Below are positions 19,401 to 22,400 of a stretch of DNA of 64,000 nucleotides, piece after piece. Each line of letters begins with the position of its first letter. Positions within the stretch are counted from its first letter, which is position 1. The DNA is taken from the IMG/VR virus record IMGVR_UViG_3300042987_001724; one strand, given 5' to 3'. A program made the translations under genes and the position numbers. The stretch is from a virus. Lineage: Duplodnaviria; Heunggongvirae; Uroviricota; Caudoviricetes. The notes under the pieces were generated by a model. The model had not been told where the DNA came from, did no database searches, and worked only from the letters and a program-made list of their open reading frames with translations.

Positions 19401-22400
19401 GATCAAAGGCGTTTAAGGCATGGTTCGGCGACTGGGAGCATGACCCCGCAAATGCGTCAAAGGTTGTCGATGCCGATGGTGAGCCGCAGGAAACCTCGCC
19501 GATTGACGGAACGGGATCGAAGGTGATGCGGGACGGAAAGCCAGTCGGCGTCTACCACGGAACAAATGCTGGCCCGTTCGGCAAATTCGAGAAGCGATGG
19601 GGGAAGGCGACAGCAGGCGGAAACAGCGAGAATCTACTGTATGGTCCGGGGATTTATTTCACAGAGACAGAGCAACTCGCAAAGGAGTATAGCTCAATCA
19701 AGAGCTTTGCGTTCAATGGCGACATTGAGCGACTGAAGTCGGAGACGGAACAGCAGATCAGGCACATGGAGACTCACGACTACGGCGGTAGCCACGTTCA
19801 GTTGGAAAAGTCCCTGAAGCAACTGGAGTCGATGACACCGGAAAGGGTGGCGAATCCGACAGAATCAAATGACAGGGTTGCAATTTCCGTCCTGAAAAAC
19901 TGGCTTCCAGTTCATGTTGTGGACAGTTTCTGGGAAGATCAGTCTCAGCCGCATGTTTTTAACTGCTTCTTGAATATCCGAAAGCCCTTAGATGCCGACA
20001 AGGGAATCCCGGATGACATTCTGGGCCGATTGGACGAAGGCACCCTTGAACAACTGAAGACGCCACTGCAAGATGCGGCCAAGAGGATTCAAGACGCAGA
20101 GAAGTACATCAGCCAAGGAAGGGCGATGATCAAGCTGATGGGGGAGCAGTTTAATTCTCCGCACACCGACGAAAAAACAAAGGCCGAACTGCAACAAAGC
20201 AAGACTGAGTATCTCCATTCGATCAATGGCAAAAATCAGATGATCGACTTCCTTAAAAGGCAGATCGAGCGAGGGATTTCATACGCGGCAGTCGCGGAGC
20301 AAGTCGGCGGAAAGACGAGACTGAACGAGATTCTTGCCGAAGCGGGATACGATGGAATCACCCACACTGGCGGTCGCATCATGGGCAAGGTGGAGCACCG
20401 CGTCTGGATCGCATTCGAGCCGAACCAAATCAAGGCTGTCAATAATCGCGGCACGTTCAATCCAGAAGACGACCGACTCGAATTCAGCCGATCCGACGAA
20501 CTCGACACCATCGCCGAACGCATGGGGGTTGATGCGGACTCGCTCCGCGCCGCAATCGCATCAATGCCGGGACCGAAATCGGAATCGCTGACGTGGATTC
20601 GGAAACTGATGCACGATCCAAGCCGTGGAGTTCTCCGGGATCGCAATGGCCACGTCATCGGATTCCTGACACGCAACGGCCAGAAGATCCAACTCAGGGA
20701 CGCTCGCGGGCATCAGTCCGGAACCGTCACTGGATCGTCATTCCGCGACAGCAAGGGCCACGTCACCGGGACATTACAGGAATTTTCTCAACAACTCCAA
20801 GATATTGAGCCGGTCGAGTTCGCACGGATCAAACCGGCCCCCGGCCAGATGTCGTTGTTCGATGAGGGAAATGTGAATCGGGAGACGGAAGCCCACGAAG
20901 GGAAACGACCGGGCGAGTTTGCGCCGAAAACGGAGCCAGCGGCCACCCCCGCACCAGTCGCGCAGAAGCCACGAAAGATCGGCAAACGAGAATTCAAGGC
21001 GGCACCATCGACAACTGTGGACTTCCCGCAGACCAATTCATTCGGGCCAATCCCCGGCGTGAAGATGAAGCACATCGACGGAACGACATTCTTCACAAAC
21101 CCGAAAGACGACACGCACGTTCTAGCGAAAGTCCCGACGCATCACGTCGAGCGATTCATGGACGAGATCAGTGGGCGGATTTCGCATCCCGCCAACAGCG
21201 GACATCCGACACTTGACAGAGTTCTCTCCGGGCACGGCACGCACATCGGCAAGGGACACGAATCAACGGCATTTGACGCTGGTAACGGAATGATAGTCAA
21301 GGCTGCGGTTTTGACACCGTTCCATATCAGCCAGCACGGTGTCCGAACACCAGCAGAGGCCAACAAGATCGTTGATGATTCCGTCGCAGTGACGAATCAC
21401 TTGCGGGCGGCTGGTGTCCCCGGAATCCTACCTCAGTACGGCATCCAACATGATGGCCGGTCGTTCGCTGTTCAGAAGAAAGTTGACACTCAGTCACCGC
21501 TGAAAACACACCATTTCGATCAACTGGAAAAGACGATTCAAGGCATTCACAACGCCGGTTACGCGGTCAAAGACCAGATTCAGGCCGGACTCGACCATAA
21601 CAGAAACGCCGCGATTTACGATATCGGCAGCGCTGCAAAACTGGAGGGAGGCCGATACGACGATGACGACAAGCGGCAGGATTTCAATAACCTTGCGTAT
21701 TTAGCGAAAAAACACGGAGTTGACTACAAAACCCCAGAGCAGCGGCGGGCACCGAATGACTACGATTCGATGTTGTGGCATATTCAGGACCATCCGGGAA
21801 TGACGCGAGACGAGGCCAGAACCGCGAAGCTGAGACTGGTCGGCGCGGCAAGCCGAACAAAGGCGGTCGATCCGGATATGCACGAGCTTCTGTCGGACAC
21901 CCACGCCGATGCAATGCAAAAGTTGGAAGGCTGGATCAATCAGCCCAAGGTGGAAATGTCACGCACCCCCGCAGCCGGGCAAGGCTCATTCAACTGGGAT
22001 GCCGACGAACACCCTCGCGACGAGATCGGGAGATTCAAAGACAAACTGCATCACCAGATCAAGGAATACTTGAGCGACGGAAGCCATCGCCACATCCGAG
22101 ACATCCATGACCACACCGGGCACAAGGATTACGACGCACTTGATCCGCTGTCGAATAAGGCCAACGCGGCATTGAAGGAACTTCGCGACTCCGGACATAT
22201 CAGCGGGACGACACCAAGCATCGGAGAGCCGCAGTTTTACATGACGGAAGAACAGATCGCGAAGCACAAGAACCCGGAATCTGACAGCAATGTGACGAAG
22301 CGTCAGGACGAATCTGACGAATCTGACGTCAAAACTGACGGAGCGTCAGGAAAAGCGACAGAACGTCAGGAAAGCACTGACAGCGGAAAACTTGGGTCGC

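Follow-up and report, generated by a model that had tools for sequence, protein, structure and literature searches.

A kinase-like module in a giant polyvalent protein of an uncultivated tailed phage

Fold and conservation of the module

The DNA analysed here, 64,000 nucleotides (nt) of IMG/VR record IMGVR_UViG_3300042987_001724 (the window), is from an uncultivated tailed phage with clustered genes for polyvalent proteins as defined by Iyer et al. 2017. The open reading frame (ORF) list and its translations include one of 2,899 residues, giant 2 (Table 1), and an identical protein is present in a public assembly. We describe here a module of this protein, residues ~1524 to 1814, which almost certainly has the fold of the protein-kinase-like (PKL) clan. 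A first-pass annotation had placed a kinase-like domain at positions 21000-21720. The domain is indeed found there, but those limits could not be kept, since the folded module runs slightly past them.

The annotation relied on three motifs that are all read in the frame of the giant ORF: a glycine-rich loop followed by a lysine, GTHIGKGHESTAFDAGNGMIVKAAV (GTHIGKG...VKAAV, residues 1582-1606, nt 21236-21310), the hexapeptide LDHNRN, and AIYDIGSA (residues 1707-1714, nt 21611-21634). When the giant protein was shuffled 2,000 times, a loose kinase pattern like that of the annotation, G.G...[VIAL]K...D..N...D[FILVM]G, had one or more matches in 128 shuffles (6.4%); the motif pattern by itself is weak evidence. 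Searches with the single window sequence gave no match to the kinase segment in Pfam, in PHROGs, in the PDB by phmmer or in a word-indexed homologue search, and AlphaFold2 (AF2) prediction from the single sequence, without an alignment, was poor (pLDDT 51). These results speak for a chance resemblance in a segment that is not kinase-like, an explanation against which the homologues and the alignment-based model decide.

An exhaustive HMMER search of 1.84 billion cluster representatives returned 267 proteins at E≤1e-3, 228 of them at 1e-10, which gives a family of at least 267 clusters at 50% identity. Conservation was counted over the best 150 relatives, which share less than 50% pairwise identity. 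The conserved core extends over residues ~1546 to 1746. Five residues are invariant (G1588, K1603, D1694, G1699 and D1710), G1586, Q1697 and G1712 are each kept in 149 relatives, G1689 in 148, H1686 in 146 and D1730 in 144. The family signature reads LGKGdDGxaF...VVKvSTtVP...mHxaGYxlxDxxQvGxxxxGxxxfDxGkA. The roles first assigned to the glycine loop and to the VK lysine are correct. Since the catalytic residues are conserved across diverged relatives, the resemblance to kinases is above chance.

An AF2 model of residues 1510 to 1815, built on a 61-sequence alignment (A2), reached a pLDDT of 92.4 and a pTM of 0.86; only spacer residues 1510-1518 (model residues 1-9) were noted below 50. The model comprises an N-terminal sheet and helix followed by β1, the glycine loop, β2, β3 with K1603, a long αC, β4, β5, αE (which ends at H1686), the catalytic loop, β7, β8, the D-I-G and four to five helices. 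The bilobal arrangement of PKL clan CL0016, in which a five-stranded N-lobe with αC is followed by αE, the catalytic loop, the β7-β8 hairpin and the DFG position, is thus present. Foldseek returned 134 PDB matches with E≤1e-3; the 50 best are kinases without exception, including the CurKC kinase domain, RNase L, PRPF4B and RIO2. In BFVD the best match, at 75% identity, is to part of a protein from an "uncultured Caudovirales phage" whose sole annotation is membership of the 2'-5' RNA ligase superfamily, and the other matches there are viral Ser/Thr kinases. Fold prediction, the check proposed in the annotation, yielded no non-kinase fold. With a confident alignment-based model, uniform kinase fold matches and invariant catalytic residues in 150 diverged homologues, chance resemblance is effectively refuted, and we give it a negligible likelihood.

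The N-terminal extension is specific to the family and has conserved positions at P1548, F1555, D/E1558 and G1561. In the glycine loop, K1587 is kept in 128 of the 150 relatives. Two αC residues are candidate partners of K1603, namely E1622 (Glu in 66 relatives, Gln in 36) and position 1630 (Gln in 102, Glu in 22, and Ser in the window). Two ORFs overlap the kinase region, 20788-21114 on the minus strand and 21775-22110 on the plus strand; we treated both as spurious because they are short and the frame that encloses them encodes a protein with hundreds of homologues.

Table 1. Positions of the module, its parts and other genes in the window (E and H, model strands and helices).
Feature (residues of giant 2)	Position (nt)	Strand	Remarks
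Host ORF giant 2	16493..25192	+	polyvalent protein, ~7 modules with a repeated linker motif between them
Upstream module boundary, PVEFARIKPAPGQ...EAHEGKRPGEFAPK (1440-1479)	20810..20929	+	regular expression; D1 repeat copy 20879-20928
Pro/Ala/Lys-rich spacer (1480-1523)	20930..21061	+	not conserved in family alignment
Complete protein-kinase-like module (1524-1814)	21062..21934	+	
Family-specific N-terminal extension (1524-1559)	21062..21169	+	three-stranded sheet and helix (model E15-39, H40-50)
β1-glycine-rich loop-β2 (1583-1597), I-G1586-K-G1588-H-E-S-T-A-F	21239..21283	+	model strands E74-78, E82-88
K1603, β3 ATP-anchoring lysine	21299..21301	+	150/150; inside model strand E91-96
αC helix (1620-1639)	21350..21409	+	model H111-130
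αE end and predicted true catalytic loop, H1686-N-A-G-Y-A-V-K-D1694-Q-I-Q1697-A-G1699	21548..21589	+	conservation; STK16 and PKA alignments
LDHNRN (1700-1705), β7-β8 hairpin turn	21590..21607	+	between model strands E189-191 and E197-199
D1710-I-G1712, metal-binding DFG equivalent	21620..21628	+	aligns with STK16 DLG and PKA D184
Helical C-terminal part (1721-1814) in place of canonical C-lobe	21653..21934	+	contains D1730, aligned to αF Asp220 of PKA
Downstream module boundary, KVEMSRTPAAGQGSFNWDADEHPRDEIGRF (1819-1848)	21947..22036	+	"V(E/Q)MSR" boundary
Second HNH endonuclease gene	1779..2639		
Trypsin-like serine peptidase gene	3449..4459	+	Pfam Trypsin_2 4.9e-16; PHROG protease
PhoH-like gene	12226..12972	+	PHROG 2e-54
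HNH endonuclease gene	25207..26190	-	
ORF with LPD1 domain	27053..31048		
ORF with DarB-like methyltransferase	31059..34850		
ORF with DarA_C	35407..39363		slightly under Pfam cutoff
Large terminase gene	50243..51913	+	at most ~28% identity to any cultured phage
476-residue ORF	57593..59023	+	
Head decoration protein gene	59075..59893		
Major capsid protein gene	59962..61119		

Catalytic residues and relation to known kinases

LDHNRN, which had been put forward as the catalytic loop, has no such role. It is a variable hairpin that falls on the "xxxxG" stretch of the family signature, and of its columns only 1704 is conserved (Gly in 140 of the 150 relatives, Arg in the window); we rejected it on these grounds. 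Judged by conservation and alignment, the catalytic loop is D1694-x-x-Q1697-x-G1699, preceded by H1686-x-x-G-Y. The D-I-G of AIYDIGSA is the DFG equivalent, with D1710 as its aspartate, as first claimed. The STK16 register pairs "MHkaGYvlrD" with "IHAKGYAHRD" and "fDlG" with "MDLG". In a weak hhalign alignment to PKA Cα (E 0.033), H1686, D1694, D1710 and D1730 pair with H158, D166, D184 and D220, respectively, and Q1697 with N171 after a two-residue deletion.

The glycine-rich loop, the β3 lysine, the catalytic-loop aspartate and the metal-binding aspartate of the PKL clan are all kept in the module. Two features that are common in the clan without being universal are lacking, namely the asparagine of D-x-x-x-x-N, since Gln1697 stands at D+3, and a clear αC glutamate. 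None of the marks of eukaryotic-type protein kinases (ePK) was found in the module, neither HRD, nor an activation segment to APE, nor an αF-αI C-lobe, nor a match to the Pfam model. Among the weak Pfam matches, those to PKL families are alone in sharing a clan: the family consensus matches Kdo (E 0.0033), and single members match Kdo, APH or RIO1.

Kinases in polyvalent proteins had already been predicted in 2017, when Iyer et al. described a monophyletic, C-terminally truncated clade of them, of Ser/Thr/Tyr type, and proposed a T7-like phosphorylation of host proteins (PMC5512222). So far these kinase modules rest on that computational prediction, to which the window family adds a variant. 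The clade corresponds to Pfam Kinase-PolyVal of clan CL0016 (PKinase). Like the window family, it occurs as a kinase module inside phage polyvalent proteins and in standalone versions, has lost the canonical C-terminal subdomain while keeping the residues for ATP binding and phosphotransfer, and has extra spacing between the histidine and the catalytic aspartate (here H1686 to D1694). Its predicted role, the modification of host proteins after injection, is shared as well (PMC5512222). Its signature Glu before strand 2 and Gln of the last N-lobe strand are partly mirrored here, by D/E1590 and Q1659 (64 of 150 relatives). By contrast, Kinase-PolyVal is reported mainly from (pro)phages of Verrucomicrobia-Chlamydia and Bacteroidetes, whereas the window family comes from uncultivated viral contigs.

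The Kinase-PolyVal model was not matched in Pfam scans of the window, of the family consensus (E≤10), of 24 domain members or of 32 full-length relatives, and it is not present in the precomputed Pfam annotation of 61 homologues. Because the model is unmatched and the descriptive features agree only in part, we file the family apart. Compared by hidden Markov model (HMM) match and by description, it appears to be a new, unrecognised PKL family of the same functional kind as Kinase-PolyVal. Membership of Kinase-PolyVal, ePK or RIO was rejected at the HMM level.

The family profile (A1) searched against PDB sequences had HopBF1 and STK16 (E 0.04) as top matches. HopBF1 (6pwd, 8hoe), a type III effector of Pseudomonas syringae and Ewingella that phosphorylates HSP90, is a minimal atypical protein kinase of ~200 residues and, like the proposed phage module, a delivered effector (PMC9950578). 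As the best PDB profile match it is aligned from αC to the metal-binding aspartate with a marginal E of 0.019-0.024, a stretch that takes in a D..Q catalytic loop and the hairpin ahead of this aspartate. HopBF1 is however secreted by bacteria into eukaryotic cells and is not a phage protein, and it has "ND" at the metal-binding position, where the window family has D-x-G.

The RIO kinases (RIO1, RIO2, RIOK3) are likewise compact PKL proteins without an activation loop and with extra structure N-terminal to the N-lobe. They are cellular ribosome-maturation ATPases, and their catalytic loop is D-x-x-x-x-N as against D-x-x-Q here. The similarity is structural only, the RIO1 Pfam model giving a weak match in one of 24 members (E 0.13). 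By structure the window family is nearest to RIO and by profile nearest to HopBF1 and Kdo, although all of these links are weak. The D-x-x-Q loop is an added variant among atypical kinases.

Gp0.7 of phage T7, which the first-pass annotation had offered as the analogue of an injected kinase, is an early-expressed gene product and is not delivered with the virion, so that "injected" does not apply to it. A closer analogue is the truncated polyvalent-protein kinase predicted by Iyer et al. As a phage kinase for host takeover it stands as a precedent, which is also cited by Iyer et al. (PMC5512222). There is no sequence relationship to the window family and the fold similarity is generic (TM ~0.3); a T7-like phage kinase, from Klebsiella phage NahiliMali, is among the BFVD fold matches (E 7.5e-5).

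Phage setting, domain partners and module boundaries

Pfam places ART-PolyVal at residues 1014-1068 of giant 2 (6e-13) and a weak GNAT match at residues 89-142, in the same polypeptide as the kinase-like module. The window also holds the ORFs with LPD1, DarB-like and DarA_C domains and the genes for terminase, head decoration and major capsid proteins (Table 1). On the basis of these several effector domains, these neighbours and the terminase and capsid genes, the host ORF is a polyvalent protein. In addition, we noted a ParB-like "SSRRRTLAAREAGVAKIPAW" stretch at residues ~365-385, a Cys-rich "CDRCGKNH...C...GSEC" stretch within the module 3' of the kinase module, and, at the C-terminus, a "HSFRWEG..GSLLVRFKAK" segment similar to the KTSC domains of relatives P0002 and P0004. 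The window had no blastn match among phage records, and across blastn and tblastn only the ADP-ribosyltransferase (ART) module matched.

Upstream of the polyvalent cluster stands a PhoH-like gene. Between two giant plus-strand ORFs, a minus-strand HNH endonuclease gene has the look of a homing endonuclease insertion; another HNH gene is found near the start of the window. AT skew is strongly positive over the giant ORFs (0.22-0.35, window 14000-40000) and about zero elsewhere, which means that the coding strands are A-rich.

The relatives vary widely in length, 73 of the best 150 exceeding 1,000 residues and 34 being shorter than 450, and the domain is therefore found standing alone as well as within giant proteins. 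Standalone versions have ~270-330 residues, and include one of 272 residues (P0191) and one of 323 residues (P0154), the latter encoded at 8001-8972 of a 614,480-bp contig (L001, JGI 3300044796). This contig also encodes a T4 gp23-type capsid protein, so the family probably extends to very large phages. These compact members, with their equivalents of K1603, D1694, Q1697 and D1710, should make activity and substrates easily testable. A search for related loci in IMG/VR with the single sequence gave none, as did one in a genome collection with the family consensus, and tblastn with the consensus gave no match among 50,697 phage and 72,556 plasmid records. Nor is the family detected by PHROGs. 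As Pfam, PHROGs and searches of cultured phages and plasmids miss it, a sizeable set of likely host-modifying enzymes in environmental phages is annotated as hypothetical.

A DNA signature pattern, GGNAARGGNRAYGAYGG-N25-GTNGTNAARGTNWSNAC, was found in 17 IMG/VR contigs, mostly within ORFs of 500 to 2,461 or more residues. The partner domains in these ORFs are InPase, S-AdoMet lyase, DarA_C, a DRAT-like ART, SNF2 helicase and ddrB-ParB. Among 22 large relatives, Pfam co-matches are LPD1 (7), InPase (4), ART-PolyVal (3), Portal_Mu (3), DarA_C (2) and GGDEF (2). The GGDEF (diguanylate cyclase) domains are unusual cargo for polyvalent proteins, as are three items seen in one relative each: sigma-70 regions 2 and 4, a PI3/PI4-kinase domain and a Hint domain. 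One member, P0151, is a Phage_Mu_F protein with the kinase-like domain at residues 313-540, and its gene adjoins that of an ADP-ribosylating toxin. The closest giant relatives, P0002, P0003 and P0004, have a domain resembling 2H phosphoesterases or the anti-CBASS protein Acb1 (PF13563 / PF23474), slightly under threshold, which suggests nucleotide-signal-degrading cassettes in the same polyproteins; the window giant does not show it.

Fusions like these mark virion-packaged, injected proteins according to Iyer et al., and MuF and portal fusions are an accepted indirect sign of packaging (PMC5512222). The systems of this kind with which the window compares are the P1 Dar proteins, MuF-fused toxins, and T4 Alt and internal proteins, all of them packaged and injected. 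The neighbours of giant 2 carry DarB-like, DarA_C and LPD1 domains, and the window family is itself fused to MuF and co-occurs with the Mu portal. Of P1 Dar, the MuF toxins and T4 Alt, none is known with this kinase-like domain, and the packaging of the giant is a prediction. DarA and DdrB of P1 undergo proteolytic cleavage before they are packaged (PMC5512222).

Every module of the giant is flanked by a short boundary motif, [EQ][FM][SAG]R, of which there are 11 copies in the protein (shuffles: mean 0.29, maximum 3). Its usual form is "EFSR" followed 6-10 residues on by "PVEF(A/G)R.P..GQ..F.WDED.HPRE..HDGKRPGEFAPK". The kinase module lies between PVEFAR at residue 1440 and VEMSR at residue 1820; the "V(E/Q)MSR" boundary is also found 3' of the kinase module in relatives P0002-P0004 and as a variant in P0005. 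These four relatives have the same boundary motif with the modules in another order. In the window the motif extends over five large plus-strand ORFs (14564-39363), and in the neighbouring large ORFs it stands ~20 residues from the N-terminus and 10-75 from the C-terminus. At the DNA level it forms the repeat families D1 and D2, with copies at 14957, 16616, 19289, 20879, 28871 and 31269. The motif is probably a maturation-protease site as well as a joint between cassettes; possible roles are cleavage by a protease, targeting to the capsid as a leader, or recombination at the joint. The linker offers a direct hypothesis of the processing of giant polyvalent proteins into functional enzymes.

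Possible function of the module

We favour the view that the module is an active kinase-fold effector of the polyvalent protein, which we consider probable. Its N-lobe, with the glycine loop G1586-K-G1588, Lys1603 and αC, appears normal. In a shortened catalytic core Asp1694 would be the catalytic base and Asp1710 of the D-I-G the metal binder, while Gln1697, two residues nearer the aspartate than usual, would replace the metal- and phosphate-coordinating asparagine. Asp1730 aligns with the αF aspartate, and a family-specific helical bundle takes the place of the activation segment and of the canonical C-lobe. Phosphotransferase activity is quite likely, and the odds that the substrate is a protein are about even. 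Most likely, the module would bind ATP-Mg and pass the γ-phosphate to one or more host proteins early in infection. The polyvalent protein would be carried inside the capsid, would probably undergo cleavage at the EFSR/PVEFAR linkers on either side of the module and would enter the cell alongside the phage DNA. Its other effector modules include the ADP-ribosyltransferase, ParB-like and GNAT-like modules. Delivery by the virion is somewhat favoured, packaging and injection being suggested by domain fusions, by gene context and by the putative cleavage motif that is shared with the ORF in the scaffold position. Catalysis, a protein substrate and proteolytic release are all predicted steps.

Several observations weigh against this interpretation. 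The predicted catalytic loop lacks the His and Arg of HRD, with Gln at D+3 for the canonical Asn; no αC glutamate partner is clearly conserved, and the best-conserved polar position of αC, 1630, is Ser in the window. These features make atypical chemistry or an ATPase activity possible. RIO kinases, the top structural neighbours, are mainly ATPases in vivo. The weak Pfam matches, Kdo and APH, include small-molecule kinases, and every sequence-level link to known kinases is marginal (E 0.003-0.04). The active-site geometry is predicted from alignments, and activity is a prediction for all family members. Finally, the giant ORF lies ~25 kb upstream of the terminase gene, with many small ORFs between them.

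The module might instead phosphorylate small molecules (sugars or lipopolysaccharide, lipids, nucleotides, antibiotics, signalling molecules), for example a precursor of the host envelope or a second messenger in immunity. The best Pfam similarities, to Kdo/WaaP and APH (E 0.018), point that way, as do the lack of an activation segment, an APE motif and a canonical substrate-binding C-lobe, and the partner domains that act on nucleotides (InPase and GGDEF, and the 2H/Acb1-like phosphoesterases of the closest relatives). However, the Kdo and APH matches fall short of the threshold and are confined to the generic region of catalytic loop and DFG, and OspG and HopBF1 are genuine protein kinases despite having no activation loop (PMC9950578). 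We regard this alternative as unlikely. A kinase fold with another chemistry or none, such as a RIO-like ATPase switch, an AMPylase or glutamylase of the SelO or SidJ type, or a binding pseudokinase, seems very unlikely. It would fit the D-x-x-Q loop, which is atypical beside HRD-x-x-x-x-N, and the RIO kinases as nearest structures, and PKL proteins are known to AMPylate or glutamylate (PMC10870513). Against it, the Lys/Asp/Asp triad is present in all 150 relatives and the glycine-rich loop is strictly conserved, which argues against a dead pseudokinase, and we saw no sign of a flipped nucleotide orientation.

A broader proposal, which we hold to be distinctly unlikely, is that the lineage delivers capsid-internal effector polyproteins made of shuffleable cassettes, with the kinase-fold cassette representing an unclassified PKL family that does not perform ordinary Ser/Thr phosphorylation. 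A conserved "EFSR" tail at the C-terminal end and a "PVEFAR...HPRE..HDGKRPGEFAPK" leader at the N-terminal end would delimit every cassette, and these would serve as signals for head-protease cleavage and targeting, possibly also as recombination joints. The kinase-fold cassette might then inactivate a host immune component or a signalling nucleotide by atypical phosphotransfer or nucleotidylation.

Two genes of the window are candidates for the cleavage of the giants. The 476-residue ORF immediately upstream of the decoration and capsid genes, a position typical of scaffold or protease genes, consists of a globular part at the N-terminus, an acidic linker and a C-terminal part with three to four copies of (E/Q)FSR or SMSR. 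In PHROGs its N-terminal half matched only two "head maturation protease" families, with a non-significant E of ~0.37, and Pfam and PDB searches with this half were empty. As a weak lead, it is a candidate protease-scaffold fusion that might cut both itself and the giants. The trypsin-like serine peptidase might instead be the enzyme that cleaves after the Arg of EFSR/EFAR. One copy of the boundary motif, "CEEFARSQ", was also seen at residue 13 of the large terminase, where it was unexpected.

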